Positions 1 through 17,603 of a stretch of 17,603 bases of DNA are shown here, piece after piece (position 1 is the first letter of the stretch; each line of letters opens with the position of its first letter). This DNA is from a virus. Taxonomy: Duplodnaviria > Heunggongvirae > Uroviricota > Caudoviricetes. The position numbers and the translations under genes were made by a program. Under the pieces are notes generated by a model that had not been told where the DNA came from, did no database searches, and worked only from the letters and a program-made list of their open reading frames with translations. The DNA is taken from the IMG/VR virus record IMGVR_UViG_2711768068_000022; one strand, written 5' to 3'.

Positions 1-1461
1 ATGAAAAAATTACTGCGTCTTTTTTTCCCGCTCTCACTGCGGGTACGTTTTCTGTTGGCAACGGCTGCGGTAGTACTGGTGCTTTCGCTTGCCTACGGAA
101 TGGTCGCGCTGATCGGTTATAGCGTCAGTTTCGATAAAACTACGTTTCGGCTGTTACGTGGCGAGAGCAATCTGTTCTATACCCTTGCGAAGTGGGAAAA
201 CAATAAGTTGCATGTCGAGTTACCCGAAAATATCGACAAGCAAAGCCCCACCATGACGCTAATTTATGATGAGAACGGGCAGCTTTTATGGGCGCAACGT
301 GACGTGCCCTGGCTGATGAAGATGATCCAGCCTGACTGGCTGAAATCGAATGGTTTTCATGAAATTGAAGCGGATGTTAACGATACCAGCCTCTTGCTGA
401 GTGGAGATCATTCGATACAGCAACAGTTGCAGGAAGTGCGGGAAGATGATGACGACGCGGAGATGACCCACTCGGTGGCAGTAAACGTCTACCCGGCAAC
501 ATCGCGGATGCCAAAATTAACCTTTGTGGTGGTGGATACCATTCCGGTGGAGCTAAAAAGTTCCTATATGGTCTGGAGCTGGTTTATCTATGTGCTCTCA
601 GCCAATCTGCTGTTAGTGATCCCGCTGCTGTGGGTCGCCGCCTGGTGGAGTTTACGCCCCATCGAAGCCCTGGCAAAAGAAGTCCGCGAACTGGAAGAAC
701 ATAACCGCGAATTGCTCAATCCAGCCACAACGCGAGAACTGACCAGTCTGGTACGAAACCTGAACCGATTGTTAAAAAGTGAACGCGAACGTTACGACAA
801 ATACCGTACGACGCTCACCGACCTGACCCATAGTCTGAAAACGCCACTGGCGGTGCTGCAAAGTACGCTGCGTTCTCTGCGTAGTGAAAAGATGAGCGTC
901 AGTGATGCTGAGCCGGTAATGCTGGAGCAAATCAGCCGCATTTCACAGCAAATTGGCTACTACCTGCATCGTGCCAGTATGCGCGGCGGGACATTGCTCA
1001 GCCGCGAGCTGCATCCGGTCGCCCCACTGCTGGACAATCTCACCTCAGCGCTGAACAAAGTGTATCAACGCAAAGGGGTCAATATCTCTCTCGATATTTC
1101 GCCAGAGATCAGCTTTGTCGGTGAGCAGAACGATTTTGTCGAGGTGATGGGCAACGTGCTGGATAATGCCTGTAAATATTGCCTCGAGTTTGTCGAAATT
1201 TCTGCAAGGCAAACCGACGAGCATCTCTATATTGTGGTCGAGGATGATGGCCCCGGTATTCCATTAAGCAAGCGAGAGGTCATTTTCGACCGTGGTCAAC
1301 GGGTTGATACTTTACGCCCTGGGCAAGGTGTAGGGCTGGCGGTAGCCCGCGAAATCACCGAGCAATATGAGGGTAAAATCGTCGCCGGAGAGAGCATGCT
1401 GGGCGGTGCGCGGATGGAGGTGATTTTTGGTCGCCAGCATTCTGCGCCGAAAGATGAATAA
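1..1461 (+). CDS. phoQ: Sensor histidine kinase PhoQ (PhoP/PhoQ two-component system)
   Basis: 486-aa ORF with ATG start; two N-terminal hydrophobic segments flanking a periplasmic domain, HAMP region, H-box ([11 protein letters not shown]) and HATPase motifs ([15 protein letters not shown]); length and sequence match E. coli PhoQ as recalled. Confidence 0.96.
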
Positions 1462-7607: not shown

Positions 7608-8765
7608 TTAATCGTCGTCCTGTGGCAGTTCCAGAATCTTGATCGCGTTCGAATCCACCACGCCACCGCCTAAATATTTCTGCGTGAAAATTTTGATGAA
7701 GCCCGGCTCTGTGAGGTTGTCCGGTCTGGTGCGAACACCTGTTTCGTGATCAACAATGTAGTAACCGCGTTTGAAGTCACCCAGGGCAATAACGTTATCA
7801 GGCATAAACTCCAGATATTCGACCGGAAGGCCCAGCAACGTATCAGGATCACCCGCCTGTAAACGGTCACGCCAGATGTAATCACCGTTCGCGTTCTTCA
7901 CCTTCTGGAGTTTTGCCGCCGTCGTGGAGTTAACCACCCAGACCGCGTTTTTGCGGTATTTTTTACGTAATGCAAATTTCAGGTCGATCAGCGGGTCCGC
8001 AGATGTCCACGCCAGAGATTCGGAAGGTTTAATTACCTGCAACGTACCAAAATCACGCTCTTTGTCGTTCTTCTCTGCACGGGGTACGGATAAAAAACCT
8101 TTTGCTTTTTTGTCACCGTCGCCCACAACCAGATCGCTTTCTTCGGTTTCCGTGAAGGTGTCGCCAATCTCACCCGTCAGCCATGAAAGGATGTCCACAT
8201 CGGAAAAATCCACGATTTCCTGTGTGGTGCGCGGGTACGCATAGACCGGATACAGCTTAATGCTCACCTCGTTAATCTGCGGGGTGCTGGTCTGTTCGCG
8301 TGCCTTACCCTCTTCACCGTGGTTAACGGTCGCACCGCCAGCGGAAACAAGCTGCTTAAACTCGTTGCTGCTGATTTTTTTCACGGTACAGATGCGGCGC
8401 ATGGTGGACTCATCCGCCAGCATTCGCATGATTTCGGTGTTCAGTTCGGGGATAACGGTATAACCACCATCAGCGGGAACGCCTGTACTTAATGCGCGGG
8501 TTTCACCTGTCAGAATGTAGCTGCGTAGTTCTGCGGGGTCAGTGGTCTGGCTGCTTTTACCTGGCTTGCTGCGCTCTTCGTCTGCAATGGCTTCAAGGCG
8601 GGAAATGTCTTTATCGAGGGATTCAGCTTTAGCGCGTAATTCGTCAAATTTTGCGCCCTCAGCATCGTTAAGACTGCGGTTTTCTTTTTCCGCGTTCTCC
8701 AGCATGTCGCGCATCTGATTTTTAATGGCGGTTTTCTGCTGGCGTAATTCGATTATTCTCGGCAT
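7608..8765 (-). CDS. Major capsid protein (HK97 fold) with N-terminal scaffold-like delta domain
   Basis: 385-aa ORF; charged coiled-coil-like N-terminus (about 100 aa) followed by a capsid-like body; first gene of the head operon; ATG start. Confidence 0.88.
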   Translation of the reverse strand: MPRIIELRQQKTAIKNQMRDMLENAEKENRSLNDAEGAKFDELRAKAESLDKDISRLEAIADEERSKPGKSSQTTDPAELRSYILTGETRALSTGVPADGGYTVIPELNTEIMRMLADESTMRRICTVKKISSNEFKQLVSAGGATVNHGEEGKAREQTSTPQINEVSIKLYPVYAYPRTTQEIVDFSDVDILSWLTGEIGDTFTETEESDLVVGDGDKKAKGFLSVPRAEKNDKERDFGTLQVIKPSESLAWTSADPLIDLKFALRKKYRKNAVWVVNSTTAAKLQKVKNANGDYIWRDRLQAGDPDTLLGLPVEYLEFMPDNVIALGDFKRGYYIVDHETGVRTRPDNLTEPGFIKIFTQKYLGGGVVDSNAIKILELPQDDD

Positions 8766-9010
8766 AAAAAAAGTCCTGGGGTTAAGTAAGGAACTCCAGG
8801 ACGCGGCAAAAACTCAACCGTTTTTCATAAGGGAATCAGCAATCGCACCGATCGTTTTCCCGCCTGGTAATGAATATTGGCGAGCACATTAACAGGCGGG
8901 AAAGTGGCCCCAGCGTCCTGGCACCACGGGCGAGAATAATCATGATTCAGTTCGGGTAAAATATGCCGATCCGCTCAGTGAACAACGTGGAACAACCACG
9001 AACAAATAAT

Positions 9011-9046
9011 TTACAAAAAATAACAAAAAGCCGGATTGCTCCGGCT
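9011..9046 (-). terminator. Rho-independent terminator (minus strand), copy 1
   Basis: Hairpin AGCCGGA-ttgc-TCCGGCT (9029-9046) followed on the minus strand by UUUUUGUUAUUUUUUG; lies directly downstream of the 9057-9281 gene. Confidence 0.7.
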
Positions 9047-9056
9047 GTATGGGTGC

Positions 9057-9281
9057 TCAGTCCCTGATCCCTTTCAGAAATTCTATCAATGCATCTGTCT
9101 GTTCAGGATTTACCGCCAGCATTTCACCGGATAGCGCGCAACGAACAAAACCATGATGATCCTTTTCAATCAGCGCCCCCGTTTCCAGGAATGCGCGGTA
9201 ATCAGTGATGTTCATCGTCTCCATGTTGTCAGCATGGTATTTATCACGCTGTTTTAATATCTCATCAAATTTCGTCGGCAT
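9057..9281 (-). CDS. Hypothetical protein (74 aa), insulated single-gene cassette
   Basis: Start placed at the internal ATG 9279-9281 with AGAGGAA SD (the track ORF extends to 9359 but would leave no room after the upstream terminator); flanked by two identical terminator hairpins. Confidence 0.55.
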   Translation of the reverse strand: MPTKFDEILKQRDKYHADNMETMNITDYRAFLETGALIEKDHHGFVRCALSGEMLAVNPEQTDALIEFLKGIRD

Positions 9282-9375
9282 TGTTTTTTCCTCTGTTGTG
9301 TCTGTTTGTTTCAGATAGTAACTATGCCGGACCGTGACGAAAAGCCAGTAGTGCGCCATACCATTTCAAATGACG

Positions 9376-9400
9376 CAAAAAAAGCCGGATTGCTCCGGCT
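9376..9400 (-). terminator. Rho-independent terminator (minus strand), copy 2
   Basis: Same hairpin AGCCGGA-ttgc-TCCGGCT (9383-9400) followed on the minus strand by U7; directly downstream of the PerC-like gene stop (9423). Confidence 0.7.
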
Positions 9401-9422
9401 GCGTGGTGTGGTTCTGATATTC

Positions 9423-9671
9423 CTACTCAGCTAATTTGCTCAGCCCCATGTCTGCATAAGTGCGATTTACTGCATTTCTCAGGTCTGCGTAGTTCTCCGT
9501 TGGCGGCTCCGGTGGCCTCTGTGCCTTCCTGGAACATTCCAGCCGTCGCATCGTAACCTGATGCCGTTCCTTGTCTGTCTCCACCAGTTGCATGACTTCA
9601 CCCCATCGCGCCGACGCCCTCCGGTAAAAGCCTTTTGCCTCGAGTTCCTCCGCTATGCGGTCATGTACCAT
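9423..9671 (-). CDS. PerC-family-like transcriptional regulator (82 aa)
   Basis: Start placed at the internal ATG 9669-9671 with GAGGGGG SD, which avoids overlap with the SSB gene; motif AEELEAKGFYRRASARWGEVM resembles the conserved PerC core as recalled. Confidence 0.5.
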   Translation of the reverse strand: MVHDRIAEELEAKGFYRRASARWGEVMQLVETDKERHQVTMRRLECSRKAQRPPEPPTENYADLRNAVNRTYADMGLSKLAE

Positions 9672-9681
9672 CGTCACCCCC

Positions 9682-10092
9682 TCAGAACGGAATACCGTCA
9701 CCGTAAGGGTCATCGCCTCCCGCTGGTGGCTGATTACCCTGTGTGCCTGTGGTTTTGCGTCTGTTCCCGCCTGGACGTGCCGCGCGGGCACTGATTACGC
9801 TGTCTGCAATAACCTGATACCCCTGCCGTGTTTCCCCGTTCTGTCCGGTCCACTGGCTGATCTGCATGTTACCCGCCACGGTCAGGAGTTCACCTTTGCG
9901 GTGCCTTGCCAGTGCTTCGGCCTGTCTGCCAAATGCCAGGACGGATAACCACATCGTCACCGTTCCGTCATCTGCCTGGCTGCACGGAAGGGGGACCGCC
10001 ATACTCGCCATCGTCATTTGTGTGCCCTTGCTGGTGGTCTTTAACTGCGGGTCAGCCACCAGCCGCCCGTAAGCTGCAATTTGTGCTGTCAT
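9682..10092 (-). CDS. Single-stranded DNA-binding protein (SSB-like)
   Basis: 136-aa ORF; OB-fold-like pattern (GRLVADPQL...W..V..FG..AE...KG..L...G.....W) with Gly/Pro-rich tail ending DGIPF, as in the SSB acidic tail; GAGGTGG SD. Confidence 0.7.
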   Translation of the reverse strand: MTAQIAAYGRLVADPQLKTTSKGTQMTMASMAVPLPCSQADDGTVTMWLSVLAFGRQAEALARHRKGELLTVAGNMQISQWTGQNGETRQGYQVIADSVISARAARPGGNRRKTTGTQGNQPPAGGDDPYGDGIPF

Positions 10093-10101
10093 ATTGCCAC
10101 C

Positions 10102-10416
10102 TCAGTGAAGCGATCCGGCGTTGTTCTTTTTCATCTTTTTCATCTCTTCCATCATTTTTTCAGTGAGCATTACGCACTGAAAACCCATTTTTTTGATGTC
10201 TACGGGTTTCATGCCTTTGTCAGTGGATATCACAGGCAGAATATCCTGATACACATCGCGGTCAGGGTAACTAAGCACACAAAGCGCCCATGATGCCACG
10301 GGTGAGGATCCTTCGTCTGTTTCAACCCACCAGCCTGGTGTAGCTGCGCTTATTTGCAGAATCGTGATCCGTCCGTTGTGCTTGTAAAATTTTTCACCAA
10401 ATTTTGGTTCGCTCAT
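10102..10416 (-). CDS. Hypothetical protein (104 aa)
   Basis: ORF with GAGAGGTGG SD and ATGA overlap with the upstream gene; no motif recognised. Confidence 0.55.
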   Translation of the reverse strand: MSEPKFGEKFYKHNGRITILQISAATPGWWVETDEGSSPVASWALCVLSYPDRDVYQDILPVISTDKGMKPVDIKKMGFQCVMLTEKMMEEMKKMKKNNAGSLH

Positions 10417-10664
10417 GATTCCACCTCTCCGGTTTTAACGTTGATGGTTGTTACCTGTTCCGCTTCGGCAATCTCCCGTTCTGTCAGCGTGGCAAAGTTT
10501 GCCGCCGCTGTGGTCATGAATGCGCTTATCAGTTCGGGATGTGCTTTCGCGTATCCTTCCCCCGCGTGGCGGTCTATCGTTCTGATTGCCACCTTTAAGG
10601 CGTGCTCTGTCATGTCTAACGCTTTATATTTTGGCTCTGTTCTGTCTCTGTGTTTTTGAGTCAT
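10413..10664 (-). CDS. Hypothetical protein (83 aa)
   Basis: Start placed at the internal ATG 10662-10664 with GAGGTGG SD; the longer track ORF (to 10796) would translate through the iteron array. Confidence 0.5.
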   Translation of the reverse strand: MTQKHRDRTEPKYKALDMTEHALKVAIRTIDRHAGEGYAKAHPELISAFMTTAAANFATLTEREIAEAEQVTTINVKTGEVES

Positions 10665-10665
10665 T

Positions 10666-10875
10666 TGCCCACCTCTACCCACTTTTTTCGCCCACTTTTT
10701 ACGTTTTCCCACTTCGTCCAACGTGGGAAATTTGGGATTTATATCATCTTGTTTCATAGGTATTTTTTTAGTGCCCACTTTTTGGGATATATGCACGTGG
10801 GAAAGTGGGTAATTTTGTTAAAATTCCGTTAAATCGCCCACCTTTCCCACTTTTAATGCCCACTTTTTACAGTGG
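10666..10875. repeat. Iteron array with central AT-rich segment: putative replication origin
   Basis: About 8 direct copies of CCCAC(T/C)TTT plus inverted copies (ACGTGGGAAA, GTGGGAAAGTGGG) around an AT-rich stretch (about 10735-10770); lies at and just past the 3' end of the replication ATPase gene. Confidence 0.7.
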
Positions 10876-12264
10876 TCCTACATCATCACCGTCAATGTAG
10901 ATCACGTCGTCTTTTTCCAGTTTGGCTAACCATCGTTTAAGGTGTTTTGTGTCATACCCCAGCTTTTTCATATCGTCACGTAACAGCGGGATCGTGCACT
11001 TGTCGCCGTGCTGTGTGCGTGAACGTATGCATCCCCATAGCGCGGTATGGTTTTCCGTCTTGTTGCCTGCCTCCTCGATGCGCTCCAGTTCAACGGGAGG
11101 GCGCGGCTTATCCACCACCACCAGCGACGTGATTAACTCCCCGTCAGCGTCGGTAAAAAGCTCCACCACGCGTAAGTCATATGCGGCTTCTTTGAGTTCC
11201 TCCGCGTCCTTCATTTTGGTGCATGAGATAACCAGCGCTTCGCTTCCTGCGTCCTCCCTGCGTATCCGGTATTCAGCATCCAGCGAAGCACGAAATGCAC
11301 TAGAACCGCGCGCGCCTTTCGTCTCATCCTTGCCGGAATGGTGAACCACCAGCACCGTGGCCCCTGTGCGTCGTTTCAGTTCGTCACAACCACGGATAAA
11401 CGCCCCCATATCACGGGAATCATTTTCATCATTACCACCAAAGCAACGCGCCAGCGTATCCAGAATAATCATGCGAACAGGTTTACCCGTTTCCCTCTCC
11501 ACCTGACGGGCAGCGATAACCATTTCATCAACATCAAGCGGGACCGCCGGAAAGATGGGACGGTTTACCAGATACAGATTTTTCACCTGCTCACCGTGCA
11601 CAACCTCCCAGGCTTTTACACGACGCGGAACGCCGATACCGCCTTCACCAACCACATAGAGAACAGCGCCATGCGCCACCCTGCGGCCTCCCCACTGACG
11701 GCCCGTGGAAACGTGACACGCCCACGAACCCGCAAGGAATGATTTATAGGAACCGCTTGCCCCGTATATGCTGCATAGCGACGATGCCGGAATAATCCCC
11801 TTTACCACGTAATCTAATTGCGTGTCGTATCCGGCAGATCCAACGCTCATCGGTAGCGTGGTTTTTCGCTGGTGGTGTTCTTCCCCTGGCTTTTTCCCCC
11901 GCTCCCGTTCCAGATATTCGCGCCAGTTCTCCCGCTTCTGGCTGTGTATCCCTTCGGGGTAATAATTCGCATCAGTTACGCCCGCCGCCGCCAGCTTGTG
12001 CGCAATGGCATTAATATTTGATGGCCTGATGTGGCCTGCCTTGTACAGCCGGACACAATAGCGCCCCTCGTCGATGATTCTCAGGTCTGCCAGTTCATCC
12101 AGTTGATCATCAGCCAGCACAATGGGAGGCACATTATCGCCAGCCAGTCGCCCGTCCTGTTCCTGCCACTGTTTCGCATGTGCCCACGCATCACTACCCG
12201 CAAAAATGATGACTTCGGTCATCTTGTCGTAAGGCTGTTTTTTTAAGTTCGGTGCGCTTTTCAT
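10867..12264 (-). CDS. Replication protein, RecA-fold ATPase (RepA/DnaB-like helicase/primase-associated)
   Basis: 465-aa ORF; deviant Walker A (YGASGSYKS), Walker B-like MIILDT, and VLVVHHSGKD motif typical of RepA/AAA_25-type replication ATPases; ATGA overlap with the upstream ORF. Confidence 0.78.
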   Translation of the reverse strand: MKSAPNLKKQPYDKMTEVIIFAGSDAWAHAKQWQEQDGRLAGDNVPPIVLADDQLDELADLRIIDEGRYCVRLYKAGHIRPSNINAIAHKLAAAGVTDANYYPEGIHSQKRENWREYLERERGKKPGEEHHQRKTTLPMSVGSAGYDTQLDYVVKGIIPASSLCSIYGASGSYKSFLAGSWACHVSTGRQWGGRRVAHGAVLYVVGEGGIGVPRRVKAWEVVHGEQVKNLYLVNRPIFPAVPLDVDEMVIAARQVERETGKPVRMIILDTLARCFGGNDENDSRDMGAFIRGCDELKRRTGATVLVVHHSGKDETKGARGSSAFRASLDAEYRIRREDAGSEALVISCTKMKDAEELKEAAYDLRVVELFTDADGELITSLVVVDKPRPPVELERIEEAGNKTENHTALWGCIRSRTQHGDKCTIPLLRDDMKKLGYDTKHLKRWLAKLEKDDVIYIDGDDVGPL

Positions 12265-12560
12265 TTCTTGCCCCTGAATCCGTTAATCATGGTTTTCAGC
12301 TTCTGGATGTTTGCCCGTGCCCTGGCGTTGCTGGTGGGCACGTTATGCGGCGCGGTCTGTACCAGAGAAAAATCACGCCGGAACTGATAAACAGGCATCA
12401 CGCAATCATATTCGTAACCTTCACGGCGGTAAGTTACGCACCGTCCCGCCACGCCCTTAATCATTACCGTGCCGCCGTACTGGTCGCGGTAAATATCACC
12501 GCGCATAAATTTAGGGTGAGTGTTGCCACTGGCAGTTAAGCCAGAATATTTAAGTTTCAT
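12261..12560 (-). CDS. Hypothetical protein (99 aa)
   Basis: ORF with GGAGAA SD; translationally coupled to the replication ATPase gene. Confidence 0.55.
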   Translation of the reverse strand: MKLKYSGLTASGNTHPKFMRGDIYRDQYGGTVMIKGVAGRCVTYRREGYEYDCVMPVYQFRRDFSLVQTAPHNVPTSNARARANIQKLKTMINGFRGKK

Positions 12561-12799: not shown

Positions 12800-13241
12800 G
12801 GCTTACATCCTCAGGAAATTTTCTTCTGTAACGCGCCTCTGCCACATATTCCGCATAATCGGCGGCGATATTCAGTACATCAAGTCCCGTTGATTTATAT
12901 TCTTTCGTGGAAAGTAAGAAAAAAGCCGCTCTAATAAGTTCTGGCATTGACGAAAGCGCATCAGCCGCATCATCAGGAACGCCGGAAAATTCTTGTTTCA
13001 GGGAATTAAAACGATCATCACGCATAACCCCCCCCCCATTTTCACAATCAGCAACAAGAATATTTTTAGCGTCATTCAGCGACCGCGTTGCGATGTATCG
13101 GATACATTCCAGGGCGAACGTTGTCCGGTCTTTCTGTTCTTCTCCCTGCGCAAGCTCTGCCGTGCATTCAATATCAATAAGCGCGTGCATCAGCGTAGTG
13201 AGCGCGGCGGCGGCTGCGTCCGGTGTGGTTTTATTGCACAT
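12792..13241 (-). CDS. Hypothetical protein (149 aa) containing a G10 homopolymer in-frame
   Basis: Start placed at ATG 13239-13241 with AGGAGG SD (the track gives a TTG start at 13271); the start overlaps the stop of the upstream small paralog. Confidence 0.55.
   Translation of the reverse strand: MCNKTTPDAAAAALTTLMHALIDIECTAELAQGEEQKDRTTFALECIRYIATRSLNDAKNILVADCENGGGVMRDDRFNSLKQEFSGVPDDAADALSSMPELIRAAFFLLSTKEYKSTGLDVLNIAADYAEYVAEARYRRKFPEDVSHA
13028..13037. repeat. Homopolymeric C10/G10 tract inside a coding sequence
   Basis: Ten consecutive C on the plus strand (G10 on the coding strand, encoding NGGGV). Confidence 0.9.
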
Positions 13242-13404
13242 GGCACACCTCCTGACGAATACGGGCGACAAAAATCAGATGTGCGTGCGGCAGCTGTGCA
13301 CGTGCTTCGCGCTCAGTGGCAGCGGTAACGGTGAATATTGCAATACTGTCTGTCAGGCACTGCATAAAGCGCCAGACAAAATAAGGGCGTGTGAATACAG
13401 CCAT
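13231..13404 (-). CDS. Small paralog A (57 aa) of a tandem ORF family; may alternatively be the C-terminus of a longer ORF starting at 13698
   Basis: ATG 13402-13404 with GGAG SD; product shares the motif F(V/L)WRF...TEREAR...ARIRQ with paralog B; the same frame stays open upstream to ATG 13696-13698. Confidence 0.4.
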   Translation of the reverse strand: MAVFTRPYFVWRFMQCLTDSIAIFTVTAATEREARAQLPHAHLIFVARIRQEVCHVQ

Positions 13405-13690
13405 GTGAAAGGCTCCCAGATGAATTTTAAGGAGTCTCGCTACTACGCTGTCAAACATGGTGGCGAGACGTAACAGGGTTGACAGACTGGTCATCTGGAA
13501 ACCAGCGAGCACAAAGGCTCCCCCGTTACGCCCCGCCATAATGCGGGTATGGGTAGGTTTACGGACACAAAAAAACCGCTTATCGGATGTGGGCGGCTGT
13601 CCGCCAGATGTATTCAGGCTGTCAAACCCGGTCGCCATGTGGGCGACGGGGGAAGCATACAGCCCCGTGATAATTTTTTGCAAGCGGTTT

Positions 13691-14248
13691 TTACGCATGA
13701 TGTGACCCCTGACGAATACGGGCGGCGAATACAGCAACACAACCGGACGGGCAACGGCTACGCGCTTCGCGTTCCGTCCAGGCGGTTACGTGGATGATTT
13801 GATGTTCTGACGCGCCAAAGATGATAAAGCGCCAGAGAAAGGCGGTTTGAGAATGTACAAGGGTAGGGATAGTAGCCATGTTGGCAGCCTCCTCAGTGTG
13901 GTTAAGATAACCGCCACCGGAAACGCCAATTTCGCTGGTGGCGGACTGTACAGGGTTGGCGTAACCGGACACTGAAGAAACCGGCGCGGATTGCTCCGCC
14001 CCCGTACAGCCCACCATTGATAAGGTGTGACTATGCGGCACAAAAAAACACGCGGGGCGCGTGTTATGCGCTTCAGTTTTGCCCAGGACGCCAATCCCGG
14101 CACCCGTTTTATGAGGTGCGCGGGAATCATAGCTATTTTCGACACTGGCGATCAACTGGTTTTTTTCTCCGATATTCAGTGCCAGAAAACGCCACACAAA
14201 GGCAGTTTGTGTGTGTACAAGGTGTGGTATATGATTTACAGCAACCAT
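13691..14248 (-). CDS. Hypothetical protein (185 aa) with internal duplication; its C-terminal 62 aa (13691-13879) has its own strong SD and may be translated separately as paralog B
   Basis: ATG 14246-14248 with AGGAG SD and an upstream 5'-UTR hairpin; N-terminus MVAVNHIPHLVHTQTAFVWRF and internal MATIPTLVHSQTAFLWRF (GAGGAG SD) are paralogous. Confidence 0.4.
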   Translation of the reverse strand: MVAVNHIPHLVHTQTAFVWRFLALNIGEKNQLIASVENSYDSRAPHKTGAGIGVLGKTEAHNTRPACFFVPHSHTLSMVGCTGAEQSAPVSSVSGYANPVQSATSEIGVSGGGYLNHTEEAANMATIPTLVHSQTAFLWRFIIFGASEHQIIHVTAWTEREARSRCPSGCVAVFAARIRQGSHHA

Positions 14249-14339
14249 AACGGCTCCTAGTTTACGTTGTTGGTTAGACGCCCTGCATGTGTTGCGAGCA
14301 CTGCGGGGTTTCGTCTTTTCTGTACCTTGCATTAACAAG

Positions 14340-14421
14340 GTGTAAGACACAATGTAAAATAACGGTGTCTTACACGTCAACCCTTCAAAATATTTTTTTT
14401 TCGTGTATATTGTCTTACACC
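14340..14421 (+). promoter_or_regulatory. Operator/promoter region of RHH module 1
   Basis: Perfect 11-bp inverted repeat GTGTAAGACAC (14340-14350) / GTGTCTTACAC (14365-14375), a third half-site TGTCTTACACC (14411-14421), and candidate -35 TTCAAA (14384-14389) / -10 TATATT (14406-14411). Confidence 0.5.
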
Positions 14422-14441
14422 AAAAACATGAGGGGTTAAAC

Positions 14442-14621
14442 ATGGCAACGGGTCCAAAGAATGCAAAATCACAATCTGTAACTGCACGTATTGCCCATGA
14501 AATTATTGAAGGCATGGAGAACGTGAAAGAAGAAGGTGAAAGCACGGGGCAGTTTATAAACGCAGCCATGCGCGGCGAAATCAAACGCCGCCAGCGCCGC
14601 AAGACCAAAGAATCAGAATAA
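14442..14621 (+). CDS. Arc/MetJ-like ribbon-helix-helix DNA-binding protein (59 aa), module 1
   Basis: ATG with GAGGGG SD 6 nt upstream; predicted strand-helix-helix pattern (SVTARIAHEIIEGMENVKEEGESTGQFINAAMRGEI), basic C-terminal tail. Confidence 0.6.
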   Translation: MATGPKNAKSQSVTARIAHEIIEGMENVKEEGESTGQFINAAMRGEIKRRQRRKTKESE

Positions 14622-14625
14622 TCAC

Positions 14626-14670
14626 CATCAGCGCCGTGGCGTGAGGTACTACGGCGCATTGCTTTACAGG
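14626..14670 (+). repeat. Conserved 45-bp intergenic element, copy 1 (hairpin GCGCCG-N15-CGGCGC followed by ATTGCTTTACAGG)
   Basis: Near-identical to 15311-15355 (2 differences) although the flanking coding sequences are diverged. Confidence 0.7.
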
Positions 14671-14678
14671 GCAGTACC

Positions 14679-14906
14679 ATGACCAACAACACACTATCAC
14701 CAATACAAGACACGCAGACGCAAGAAGATGAAATCATTCGGCAAAGGCAGTTAGAAACCTGTGCTCGCCTTGAAGCCGAACTGGCTAATCCTCTGAATAT
14801 CCAACTAATACCGATAGAAATGAAACCTGGACTATTCGCGTTGGAGGCATTTTTAGCAAGCTGCCCACGGCGGCTAAAGTCCCGTAAGAATCGCCCGCCA
14901 GGATGA
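14679..14906 (+). CDS. Hypothetical small protein (75 aa), module 1 second gene
   Basis: ATG 57 nt after the RHH1 stop; weak SD; begins MTN like its counterpart in module 2. Confidence 0.4.
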   Translation: MTNNTLSPIQDTQTQEDEIIRQRQLETCARLEAELANPLNIQLIPIEMKPGLFALEAFLASCPRRLKSRKNRPPG

Positions 14907-15025
14907 GTACACAAAACCGAACTATGAAACGGATTATTCCGTTTCCGGGGCGTTTGTGTGTGTATAAAGAGTAAGCTATGCTCTTTTATAGCCATAATCG
15001 TTACCTCAATTAATGGTTTGGTTAG

Positions 15026-15067
15026 ACGCCCCGTATGTGTTCCCATCACTGCGGGGCGTTGTTTTTT
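15026..15067 (+). terminator. Rho-independent terminator of RHH module 1
   Basis: 8-bp perfect stem ACGCCCCG/CGGGGCGT (15026-15033 / 15052-15059) followed by TTGTTTTTTG. Confidence 0.55.
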
Positions 15068-15083
15068 GTGCTAGTTGTGTGTA

Positions 15084-15099
15084 ATGTGTATATACACAT
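15084..15099 (+). promoter_or_regulatory. 16-bp perfect palindrome ATGTGTATATACACAT overlapping a candidate -10; putative operator of RHH module 2
   Basis: Read directly; sits about 30 bp upstream of the RHH2 start; a second dyad TTGAC-GT-GTCAA follows at 15122-15133. Confidence 0.45.
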
Positions 15100-15126
15100 A
15101 AACACATTATATGGAGTGTAATTGAC

Positions 15127-15306
15127 GTGTCAACACACAAAAATGAAAGGCGTGGTAATCCTCCTTTCCAGTTCCGTTTAGATCCTGACTTACGGGAAAA
15201 GATGGAAAAAGCACAACAACAAGACGGTGATGACTCTTTAGCAGCTTGGATAAAACGAATAATCCGAAAAGAATTACAGCAACGCGGTATTGAACCCAAA
15301 GAATAA
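15127..15306 (+). CDS. Arc-like ribbon-helix-helix DNA-binding protein (59 aa, GTG start), module 2
   Basis: Not in the ORF track (GTG start, under 60 aa); GGAG 10 nt upstream; PPFQFRLDPDLREKMEKAQQQDGDDSLAAWIKRIIRKEL aligns with the P22 Arc strand-helix-helix pattern as recalled. Confidence 0.5.
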   Translation: MSTHKNERRGNPPFQFRLDPDLREKMEKAQQQDGDDSLAAWIKRIIRKELQQRGIEPKE

Positions 15307-15310
15307 AAAA

Positions 15311-15355
15311 CATCAGCGCCGTGGCGTGAGGAACTCCGGCGCATTGCTTTACAGG
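15311..15355 (+). repeat. Conserved 45-bp intergenic element, copy 2
   Basis: Same position (57-nt intergenic gap) and sequence as copy 1. Confidence 0.7.
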
Positions 15356-15363
15356 TACACACA

Positions 15364-15567
15364 ATGACCAATAAAGAATCAACCAATACACCATCGCAAA
15401 AAACGAACAGAGAGCACGAAAATATGGCGCTCGAGCATGAATCAGAAAGATTCGCTCCATGCGCTTTTGTCCTTGATGAGTTTCTAAAAAAATATTCACG
15501 TTCTGAACGGATGAAAATGGCAGCACAATACGGCCCCAACAAGCAAGGTAATTGCCCACCAGCCTGA
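15364..15567 (+). CDS. Hypothetical small protein (67 aa), module 2 second gene
   Basis: ATG 57 nt after the RHH2 stop; weak SD. Confidence 0.4.
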   Translation: MTNKESTNTPSQKTNREHENMALEHESERFAPCAFVLDEFLKKYSRSERMKMAAQYGPNKQGNCPPA

Positions 15568-15641
15568 TAGCGGCTATCATTCCCGTGCTTATGTTTGGGA
15601 TCACATACACATAAGGCGCAGCAGGTTAATTGTTCAGAAAG

Positions 15642-15669
15642 GCGGCTCCATATCGGGGCCGCTTTTTTT
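15642..15669 (+). terminator. Rho-independent terminator of RHH module 2
   Basis: Stem GCGGCTCC/GGGGCCGC (one G-U pair), 5-nt loop, then T7. Confidence 0.65.
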
Positions 15670-15810
15670 ATGCCTGAAAAACCCCAATTTTGTTGTTTTT
15701 CAGTTTCACCAGGGCGAACGAATCCCCGCCCACGTTCGGGCGCATATTCAATCTTCATGGTTATATCTCTGTATTAGTGGATGTGTGGCGACTGTGTGCC
15801 GCCAGTCTTT

Positions 15811-15999
15811 TTAGTGAACTGCCTTGCAGCTATCCTTCCAGGCCAAAACCTCAGATAAAGACCAGCCAACAGAACGCCCACCAAGTTTACGACGTGATGG
15901 GAATTGTCCGGCCTTTTCCAGGCGGTAGCGGCATGAGCGGCTAAGGCCTGTTAGCTTTTCGCATTCTTTTTCACGTATAAACCGATCAGTGCTTAACAC
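15811..15999 (-). CDS. alpA: AlpA-family (phage Xis/MerR-like) transcriptional regulator/excisionase
   Basis: 62-aa ORF, GTG start with AGGGGG SD; motif KLTGLSRSCRYRLEKAGQFP...GGRSVGWSLSEVLAW matches the AlpA family; sits next to the integrase. Confidence 0.8.
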   Translation of the reverse strand: MLSTDRFIREKECEKLTGLSRSCRYRLEKAGQFPSRRKLGGRSVGWSLSEVLAWKDSCKAVH

Positions 16000-16050
16000 T
16001 ATTGCCCCCTTTCGTTTCTTAAAGAGTTATTTCGTGTTCTATTGCGTTGG

Positions 16051-16080
16051 GATGTGTCTGATTGTGTCAGGATGATTCAG
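16051..16080 (+). repeat. Three tandem 10-bp units GATGTGTCTG / ATTGTGTCAG / GATGATTCAG upstream of alpA
   Basis: Read directly; helical-turn phasing; same TGTGTC core as the arrays at 1979-2013 and 16281-16335. Confidence 0.5.
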
Positions 16081-16160
16081 AGTTGGCAAATGTTGGTGTC
16101 GCATGGTTTACAGAAAGAGGAATAATCAGAATAAAATCATTTAAATTCATGTTAATACAA

Positions 16161-16190
16161 AGGCATAAAATCTTGTTTTATGCCTTTTTT
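16161..16190. terminator. Palindromic hairpin terminator between int and alpA (possibly bidirectional)
   Basis: Perfect 10-bp stem AGGCATAAAA/TTTTATGCCT with a 5-nt loop; T5 on the plus side, U-rich on the minus side. Confidence 0.55.
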
Positions 16191-16280
16191 CGCACGCTTT
16201 AACGCGTAATTCACTAATGTATAAAAAACCAGCTGAGCATTAAAAATCAGTAACTTACAAATCTGTATTCTTTTTGGCCT

Positions 16281-16335
16281 CTTGTTCGTGATTGTGTCAC
16301 GTTGTTGCACATTGTTTCACGTTGTATCTGTGCAC
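16281..16335 (+). repeat. Tandem ~20-bp direct repeats (GTTGTTGCACATTGTKTCAC) just 3' of int
   Basis: 15-bp ATTGTGTCACGTTGT (16291-16305) and ATTGTTTCACGTTGT (16311-16325) differ at one position, with a partial third unit. Confidence 0.55.
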
Positions 16336-16373
16336 TTATCCAGTATGCGCATACTGAAAAAACACGAAAAAAA

Positions 16374-17603
16374 TTATTTTATTCTGGTTACTGGTAGCGT
16401 GGTTACGTTTTCATGTGTTCCCGCCAGTATCTCCAACCGCTCCACCCACATATCAAGCGCATTGCGTTTCGCATCAATATAGCGGGAATGGTTGTACACG
16501 CGTTGCATTCCTGGCATCTGGTGGCCTGTAAGCTGCTCCACGACGTGAGGATCAACGCCTAAATCGTTCAGCATGGTTGTAAAGGTGCGCCGGATGTCAT
16601 GCAATGACCATTGAGGGTGTTTTAGCCTCCTGTGCGCTAATCTGCCGTACTGCGATACGCTGGTTTCCTGTTTCACTTCCCCCAGCAATAAGCCCGTGTG
16701 CCTGTTCTGCTCCACCAGCTGCGTGACGAACGGCAGTATCGCTTCCGGTATGGGCCGGAATATGGCTACCTTCGTTTTGCTGTGCTCCTTCGGAACGGTC
16801 CAGAGCATTTCGGTAAAATCCCACTCGCCGATCTCCGATAACCTCAGTTCTACTGTTCGGCATCCGAAAACAATCAGGAGGCGGATTAGTGCGACGTAGT
16901 AAGGGGAAAATATTTTTTTGTCCAGTGCCTGCAATAATTCGCCAAGTTCTTTGTTACTTAAGACACGCTCGCTTATATCCGGTTTTTTCCCAACGTCCGC
17001 CACACTCATATCATCAAGAACGTTGCTGATTGCATAGCGCCGCTTCCTGCAGAACTTAAGCGCCTGCTTGCATGTCTGTAGCAGGAACCCGGCGGAAACA
17101 GGGGCTTTCTTTGCCACCCGATCAAAACAGGCCAGCCAGTGCCGTAGCTCGCATTTATCCAGCGGCATAGGGCCAATGTGCTGTATTACGTGATTATTTA
17201 GCCGCTTTTTCAGTGGGTCATAATCCACACGGTTTTCCTTTGCGTACGACTCAAGCCAGTAGGTGAGCGCATCGCCAACCGTTACCGGCTTTAACGCTTC
17301 CTGTACGGTGTAATTCATTTCATGACGTGGATTTTTCCCCTCTGCCAGCCATGCGCGACACTGGGCGGCTTTTTCCCTGGCTGATTTCAGGCTCAGATCA
17401 GGATAATTTCCCAGCTTAATGCGTTCCGGTGGTGCCCCCCTTCCCGTTCCGGCCCTGTAAGTGAAATACCAGGTTAAAAGGCCACTGGTTGAATGCCTGA
17501 CGCTCAGGTTTCCACCGTCATTAAGAAAGGCTGTTTTTTGGGCGGGTGTGCCGTTGATTTTCCTCAGCTGTGTATCGCTCAGTTTGTTAAGTGCTCTGCT
17601 CAT
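16374..17603 (-). CDS. int: Tyrosine site-specific integrase (P4-type)
   Basis: 409-aa ORF; C-terminal catalytic motifs (HDIRRT, LTGH, Y in RVYNHSRY); ATG start is the last three bases of the window, so the adjacent att site is outside it. Confidence 0.92.
   Translation of the reverse strand: MSRALNKLSDTQLRKINGTPAQKTAFLNDGGNLSVRHSTSGLLTWYFTYRAGTGRGAPPERIKLGNYPDLSLKSAREKAAQCRAWLAEGKNPRHEMNYTVQEALKPVTVGDALTYWLESYAKENRVDYDPLKKRLNNHVIQHIGPMPLDKCELRHWLACFDRVAKKAPVSAGFLLQTCKQALKFCRKRRYAISNVLDDMSVADVGKKPDISERVLSNKELGELLQALDKKIFSPYYVALIRLLIVFGCRTVELRLSEIGEWDFTEMLWTVPKEHSKTKVAIFRPIPEAILPFVTQLVEQNRHTGLLLGEVKQETSVSQYGRLAHRRLKHPQWSLHDIRRTFTTMLNDLGVDPHVVEQLTGHQMPGMQRVYNHSRYIDAKRNALDMWVERLEILAGTHENVTTLPVTRIK

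Follow-up and report, generated by a model that had tools for sequence, protein, structure and literature searches.

Introduction

What a PerC-like gene does on a phage satellite is the question raised by an 82-codon reading frame at positions 9423–9671 of a viral DNA stretch of 17,603 nucleotides (IMG/VR record IMGVR_UViG_2711768068_000022), the whole of which is called the window here. From a short motif, the original prediction assigned the product to the PerC family, named a Pfam HMM search as the check, and proposed that a satellite-borne copy could couple island carriage to host gene regulation or act as the island's own late activator.

PerC-family genes are common in Gram-negative PICIs (PMC11773190), and PerC alleles are encoded by E. 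coli PICIs, some of the homologues coded by PICIs activating LEE (PMC6092414). EcCIMP1_025, in turn, represses LEE1, for which its authors proposed binding to regulators rather than to DNA; they give it about 40% identity to the PerC-like proteins of EcCIEDL933 and EcCICFT073 (PMC11773190), and for the latter two PMC11773190 cites Porter 2005 as having seen no effect on LEE1. PMC6265319 and PMC11773190, which cite Iyoda and Watanabe (2004) and Porter (2005), describe PchE of O157:H7 as having little or no LEE effect. Its over-expression represses csgD, csgA, curli, biofilm formation and HEp-2 adhesion independently of Ler, deletion of pchE slightly increases Congo-red binding, and the gene is expressed basally in uninduced cells and drops on SOS induction (PMC6265319). 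Furthermore, PchE raises flagellar operons and motility, and 5′ RACE in O157:H7 has revealed a polycistronic ECs1586–ssb–pchE RNA (PMC7369912). PchA, which has no homology to DNA-binding proteins, activates LEE1 via relief of silencing by H-NS, StpA, Hha and YdgT (PMC4764244).

The carrier island and its insertion site

The window extends from phoQ (1–1461, plus strand) at one end to the start of the integrase gene at the other, with all genes between them on the minus strand. In the direction of transcription the order is int, alpA, small ORFs together with an Ash-family ORF, a DUF4222 protein, a RepA-type helicase (10867–12264, minus), iterons, orf83, orf104, ssb and perC, followed by a terminator, orf74, a second terminator, a 260-nt leader and the head/terminase genes, namely capsid, protease, portal, head closure, connector, HNH, TerS, TerL and orf93. 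The tyrosine integrase (16374–17603, minus; Pfam and PHROG), at the island end adjoining roxA, is 95% identical to Sakai ECs_1574. The alpA gene (15811–15999, minus; Pfam Phage_AlpA, PF05930, 65.2 bits) corresponds to the master activator of the island cycle in related PICIs, and induction of EcCIEDL933 needs alpA (bioRxiv 10.1101/2022.09.08.507074). Downstream of perC, the packaging operon opens with an HK97-type major capsid gene (7608–8765, minus; Pfam Phage_capsid, E = 1.6e-61).

The island occupies the roxA (ycfD)/phoQ site, the same as Sp7 of O157:H7 Sakai. Sp7 is CP-933C, or O-island 51 (PMC3378721), which was discussed as a PICI by Fillol-Salom et al. (PMC6092414), and the EDL933 island with such a packaging module is EcCIEDL933, the prototype cf-PICI (bioRxiv 10.1101/2022.09.08.507074), which has HK106 and HK446 among its published helper phages. 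The equivalence of the Sp7-site island to EcCIEDL933 is taken from these three sources, and the sequence aligned here is that of Sakai. By the published description (bioRxiv 10.1101/2022.09.08.507074), a cf-PICI is an element of about 10–15 kb at a dedicated att site. One of its ends carries int and alpA; besides a replication module it has a full head and terminase module (HNH, TerS, TerL, portal, protease, capsid, connectors), and genes for tail and lysis are missing. The window island, judged by its genes and site, has the traits of the EcCIEDL933 type, and Pfam/PHROG annotation found no tail or lysis genes within it. That perC is carried by a satellite is thus borne out: it lies on an int–alpA–replication–head/terminase island at the Sp7/CP-933C site.

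Several further features of the island were recorded. Iteron-like direct repeats (CCCACTTTTT and variants), spaced about 83–85 nt apart at 10678–10870, immediately follow the RepA-helicase gene on its 3′ side and probably serve as the origin of replication of the island; at this position Sakai Sp7 has another replicon, with a P4-alpha-type primase and other iterons (AACCCGC). The DUF4222 protein (12261–12560, minus) is 79% identical to Sakai ECs1581 (RgdR), a published LEE1 activator and motility modulator, so that the island has two small host-directed regulators. From the replication genes to int (about 13200–16370), the window differs from the otherwise near-identical sequence of E. coli strain JNE132847, with about 1.4 kb extra; a 452-aa ORF with an Ash-family domain (13691–15049) lies in this differing region, and a 250-aa ORF at 15006–15758 had no Pfam or PHROG match.

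The gene and its start codon

On the minus strand, the reading frame runs from an ATG at 9671–9669 to a TAG at 9425–9423 and encodes the 82-aa product MVHDRIAEELEAKGFYRRASARWGEVMQLVETDKERHQVTMRRLECSRKAQRPPEPPTENYADLRNAVNRTYADMGLSKLAE, in which the motif of the prediction, EELEAKGFYRRASARW, occupies residues 8–23. A mechanical ORF list gives the same frame a longer form of 122 aa from an upstream GTG; this start was rejected, as the added stretch would run into ssb, the Pfam model begins at the ATG, and it is the ATG that a Shine-Dalgarno sequence precedes. The latter, GAGGGGG, was read off the sequence at 9677–9683 (minus) and overlaps the ssb stop codon (9682–9684). With the PerC model aligning from residue 1, this ribosome-binding site, the nearby ssb stop and an identical 249-nt CDS called by RefSeq/PGAP, the ATG is the real start. 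Nor is the frame a chance ORF, given its Pfam and PHROG matches (E = 1e-35, and E = 1.6e-38 for phrog_994) and hundreds of homologues.

The DNA is that of E. coli. Strain JNE132847 has positions 9000–10200 at 100% identity, with the identical protein named 'PerC family transcriptional regulator' by PGAP, and the segment is matched in 1505 of 5426 complete E. coli genomes. The 82-aa allele itself occurs at 99–100% identity in 15 complete E. coli genomes and several IMG/VR contigs. Its carriers include O104:H21 and O113:H21 strains, which are, to our knowledge, LEE-negative serotypes.

PerC family membership and orthology with PchE

The Pfam search was run and returned a significant match, so the assignment made from the motif was confirmed: PF06069 (PerC) scored 122.3 bits against a gathering score of 22.6, with residues 1–78 on model positions 1–77 of 90. 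In PHROG, several families labelled 'transcriptional activator' matched in addition to phrog_994. We used as the family criterion a conserved N-terminal core in a protein of about 80–105 aa, and in alignments of 8 and 30 sequences the window protein has every invariant column of that core, LE-x-KG-x-YRRA-x-x-RW together with R36, R43, C46 and K49. The type PerC (BfpW) of EPEC E2348/69, founder of PF06069 and encoded on the EAF plasmid pMAR2, carries this motif of the prediction as YLEEKGFYRRAADRW; it is 41% identical to the window protein (31/76), belongs to the same size class and shares the core, in the form LE-x-KGFYRRA-x-x-RW, and the four single residues. EPEC PerC is a plasmid-borne LEE1 activator in a perABC operon, whereas the PchE type is satellite-borne and reportedly does not activate LEE1 (PMC6265319, PMC11773190).

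The closest characterized relative is PchE (ECs_1588 of Sakai Sp7), to which the window protein is 80% identical (66/82), with 54 of the first 57 residues the same. Sakai Sp7 and the window island also share the order ssb–pchE–terminator–orf74–terminator–leader–capsid and the roxA/phoQ site, and this combination of identity, flanking genes and insertion site identifies a PchE, or Pch group 3, orthologue. On Pfam, PchE identity and synteny, and the PGAP name, we annotate 9423–9671 (minus) as a perC/pchE-like CDS of the Pch group 3 type with a short C-terminal allele; that it is a genuine PerC-family member and a pchE allele is nearly certain from its sequence. The two islands differ in that the window has a RepA-helicase replicon, different iterons and an extra orf104, and in that the O157 pchE promoter is not conserved.

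The proteins diverge at their C-terminal ends. PchE has 90 aa and an IWRNY motif, whereas the window allele has 82 aa and another tail, ending MGLSKLAE*, in which the (W/F)R(N/R)Y motif was not found. Homologues conserve this motif to at least 90%; it is a family-typical trait and no formal membership criterion. The TAG stop stands at the position of a glutamine codon in a longer related protein (P0010), which runs on as ...LAEQEYQNATTEPE.

Other relatives mark the limits of the family. PchA/B/C (group 1, 104 aa, from EHEC lambdoid prophages) are likewise small and have no recognisable DNA-binding domain; the group 1 pch genes activate LEE and respond to SOS induction by a rise in expression, whereas pchE responds by a fall (PMC6265319). 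EcCIMP1_025, satellite-borne like the window gene and repressive on host or virulence genes, lies on a classical PICI, EcCIMP1, without capsid genes (PMC11773190). On an E. coli plasmid, beside phage lysis genes, a 104-aa PerC-family protein (L003) is 44% identical to the window protein and has a longer basic C-terminal tail. We take this plasmid protein to be PchABC-type. Against the ANR family (NCBIfam NF033650; Aar, for example), the window protein stayed below threshold at 17.7 bits (cutoff 32 bits; E = 0.0024), with residues 7–52, the three-helix core, on profile positions 9–54; it is longer than ANR proteins, has a Pro-rich linker and a fourth helix, and is not a member. Remote PerC-profile matches such as P0245 (33.8 bits) do pass the ANR cutoff, so that the PerC family grades into ANR, and natural ANR-like relatives of 60–75 aa comprise scarcely more than the core. 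ANR proteins act by binding regulators (AraC-type activators, H-NS) and not DNA.

Transcription unit and head-operon leader

The perC gene is the last of a replication-module unit, orf83–orf104–ssb–perC, that is closed by an intrinsic terminator. The orf83 gene (10413–10664, minus), homologous to ECs1586, and orf104 (10102–10416, minus), which is extra relative to Sakai in the alignment, both belong to PHROGs of unknown function and have PGAP coordinates; ssb (9682–10092, minus; Pfam SSB, E = 1.4e-15) lies directly upstream of perC. The ssb–perC gap of 10 nt, kept at the same junction in Sakai Sp7, suggests coupled expression, and the two genes are presumably co-transcribed. A terminator scan detected, 22 nt past the perC stop, a terminator-like hairpin, AGCCGGAGCAATCCGGCT, followed by U7 (9376–9400, minus; RNA fold −15.7 kcal/mol, z = −4.06); the hairpin is conserved behind pchE of Sakai and also in a third island, L004. 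As perC closes this unit, one or two terminators separate it from the head operon. The transcription start of O157 pchE cannot be carried over to the window, because the upstream replicon/ori segment is non-homologous and no sigma-70 consensus promoter was detected in 8600–10900, head-operon leader included; with the O157 promoter segment not conserved, basal expression of the window allele may differ.

A second terminator hairpin with a U-tract (9025–9046, stem 9029–9046, minus; −12.8 kcal/mol, z = −3.2), near-identical to the first, follows orf74 (9057–9281, minus; phrog_1957, function unknown in PHROG), which lies between perC and the head operon. Both hairpins are carried by a 28-nt direct repeat, 93% identical between 9025–9052 and 9379–9406 (minus), that brackets orf74, and in L004 and many IMG/VR relatives orf74 is missing and a single hairpin is present. 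This arrangement suggests loss or gain of orf74 by recombination between the terminator repeats. A simple inserted moron was considered for orf74 and this view was revised, because divergent PerC-less cf-PICIs retain a homologue ahead of their capsid gene; deletion between duplicated terminators more likely accounts for its presence or absence.

The head-operon leader (8766–9024, minus), of about 260 nt, holds a conserved TTTGTAAATTAT box, a phased TTGTTC repeat and a 17-nt inverted repeat. The phased repeat, TTGTTC-N4-TTGTTC-N4-TTGTTC at 8980–9005 (minus), stands at the leader start in exact 10-bp phase, is unique in the window and arose in none of 200 shuffles, which makes it a candidate site for the binding of a regulator. 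The inverted repeat (8856–8903, minus) is 94% complementary around a 14-nt loop (RNA fold −28.2 kcal/mol, z = −3.1, no U-tract), its arms are kept with a different loop in the divergent relative L075, and it may serve as an operator, act at the RNA level or have to do with packaging. From perC to capsid, close islands share about 99% of the leader sequence, which is hence uninformative for covariation.

Distribution among satellites, plasmids and phages

A scan with one genome per species gave 23 PerC loci, in Escherichia, Atlantibacter, Enterobacter, Kluyvera, Shimwellia, Pantoea, Lonsdalea, Chimaeribacter, Erwinia, Raoultella and Citrobacter. An integrase gene is present 8–9.5 kb upstream on the same strand in at least 10, nine have ssb directly upstream of PerC, and none has a capsid module of the window type. 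The ssb–perC pair is thus kept in nine non-E. coli Enterobacterales loci, as it is in most sampled E. coli capsid-forming islands, and the linkage to integrase and ssb across genera ties PerC to the satellite replication module, plant-associated genera included. A terminator after PerC was not found in 15 non-E. coli loci, and was therefore rejected as a general trait of PerC-bearing satellites. Homologues occur on 217 plasmids and in 5 of 50,697 phage records, for which reason a phage origin of perC was also discarded.

In six of these satellites (L016, L017, L019, L020, L022 and L009, from Pantoea, Lonsdalea, Erwinia, Chimaeribacter and Enterobacter), the genes downstream of PerC are a lipoprotein-like ORF, a 108-aa ORF and one of about 580–1140 aa, with a small basic ORF (MPDS.KEQ...) also downstream in four of the six. 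This set appears to be a recurring module.

Within the capsid-forming group, IMG/VR contigs whose capsid protein is at least 98% identical to that of the window have a PerC match just 5′ of the capsid gene in 38 of 38 cases with enough upstream sequence, one being a remnant and one partial. PerC identity in this set spans 61–100% while capsid identity spans 98–100%, and PerC is partly deleted in two otherwise intact islands (L031, L035). Seven further capsid-forming relatives (L070–L074, L076, L077), with capsid proteins 66–70% identical, have no PerC at all; in the region about 250–1000 nt upstream of capsid, the TTTGTAAATTAT leader box is present in all seven within two mismatches, and most have an 86–91-aa orf74 homologue. 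Since PerC-less relatives mostly keep orf74, its tie to the capsid module is closer than that of PerC. PerC is present in another divergent relative, L075, whose capsid protein is 69% identical.

Predicted structure and a model of action

The structure model has a confident core, a three-helix unit at residues 1–50 that may be TPR-like, and a fourth helix; core and fourth helix are intact and almost identical to those of PchE, and the final residues are modelled at a pLDDT of about 49. The matches that this 50-residue helical unit gives to helical-repeat folds count as weak evidence, and Pfam shows no TPR sequence signal. A sequence search for a relative with a solved structure found none. As modelled, the fold is not a DNA-binding one, which, together with a putatively TPR-like core that grades into ANR, makes a protein–protein adaptor the most likely kind of protein.

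We therefore favour, with a probability of about 0.6, the reading that the window gene, as the allele of pchE found at the orthologous position on a cf-PICI, encodes an adaptor that would shift host surface and motility programmes, with no LEE activation. The functional data behind this reading come from the 90-aa O157 orthologue, mostly under plasmid over-expression. By analogy with that orthologue, an uninduced lysogen would make little transcript of the gene, as part of a polycistronic ssb–pchE RNA, and less still on SOS induction. The protein would not activate LEE1; it would repress csgD, curli and other adhesins, and raise flhDC/fliC and motility. Such an adaptor may remodel complexes of regulators or nucleoid proteins, either of the H-NS/StpA/Hha type, as PchA does, or with partner regulators, as ANR proteins do, and this remodelling would shift surface-structure and motility programmes of the host while the satellite is resident. 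Relief of H-NS/StpA/Hha silencing in the manner of PchA offers the best available model, by analogy, for PerC-family action. Lacking the near-invariant (W/F)RNY motif, the window allele could be impaired in activity. The original prediction that island carriage could couple to host regulation finds support in what has been reported for the orthologue PchE, which represses csgD and curli and activates flagella (PMC6265319, PMC7369912); the LEE virulence regulon, to which the name PerC points, is not the target (PMC6265319, PMC11773190).

Alternative readings

The other role foreseen for the gene, that of the satellite's own late regulator, is one we consider unlikely. PerC, made from the replication-module transcript after AlpA-driven induction, would here turn on the head/terminase operon, or permit read-through into it, by acting at the TTGTTC repeats. 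The place of perC as last gene before a terminator and a leader without a sigma-70 consensus promoter fits such a switch, as do the uniquely phased repeat, the constant position of PerC just 5′ of the capsid gene in the close relatives, and its place at the boundary between the replication and downstream modules in satellites of many Enterobacterales. Among IMG/VR relatives, repeat and PerC occur together in 38, neither occurs in 13, a PerC remnant accompanies the repeat in one, and PerC without the repeat is found in none; this co-occurrence is, however, fully confounded by linkage, the two lying 100–450 nt apart, and comes down to about 2 versus 3 independent lineages. L075 has both PerC and repeat despite a capsid protein as divergent as those of PerC-less lineages. 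On the other hand, the seven capsid-forming relatives with the same leader box and no PerC indicate that the head operon is not generally PerC-dependent, by which the late-activator idea is partly disfavoured. In classical PICIs, PerC occurs in the absence of a capsid operon, of a terminator behind it and of TTGTTC repeats, the predicted fold is non-DNA-binding, PerC homologues are nearly absent from sequenced phages, and pchE is on in uninduced cells, where no capsid production has been reported, and goes down on SOS induction (PMC6265319). A broader version, which we hold to be quite unlikely, would make the whole family originally one of satellite life-cycle factors, TPR-like adaptors whose genes, next to ssb, close the PICI replication operon across Enterobacterales and which would switch on the head operon at the phased TTGTTC repeats in cf-PICIs, the effects on LEE, curli and flagella being secondary or exapted.

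That the gene is in decay or has lost its function, and travels with the island as passenger DNA, is very unlikely in our judgement. The early TAG with its loss of the C-terminal motif, the low-confidence last residues of the model and the partial PerC deletions in L031 and L035 would agree with decay; the helical core and fourth helix are nevertheless intact, translation signals are in place, the 82-aa allele recurs across complete genomes and contigs, and the short natural ANR-like relatives manage with little beyond the core. Least probable of all, to the point of being nearly dismissed, is a virulence activator of the LEE type that, like EPEC PerC and EHEC PchA/B/C, would switch on ler (LEE1) in LEE-carrying strains. 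The common Pfam family and N-terminal core motif speak for it, but identity to active PerC and to presumed PchABC-type proteins is only 41–44%, the allele sits in the O104:H21 and O113:H21 backgrounds mentioned above, and homologues extend to Pantoea, Erwinia and Lonsdalea, in which we know of no LEE. LEE activation by some PICI-coded homologues (PMC6092414) has to be set against the LEE1 repression by another (PMC11773190) and the little or no LEE effect of the 80%-identical PchE, as earlier studies are cited in PMC6265319 and PMC11773190. We thus retain the PchE-like, host-directed adaptor as the preferred reading.

Implications

The window PerC gene is already known and stands in its usual place on a capsid-forming satellite. 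Its discovery value is small, for the literature covers the gene and its family, reports PerC alleles on E. coli PICIs and describes what the orthologue does, and RefSeq names the identical protein. What the present analysis adds is the end of the ssb–perC unit with an intrinsic terminator, the model of a putatively TPR-like core, the grading into ANR, the missing (W/F)RNY motif and the co-occurrence of PerC with TTGTTC. For annotation, caution is needed, as the label 'PerC' on the window gene does not imply LEE activation. The ssb–perC pair is kept across genera; this strict linkage in satellites of many genera, which lies outside the host-directed reading, may point to a part for PerC in the life of the satellite itself.
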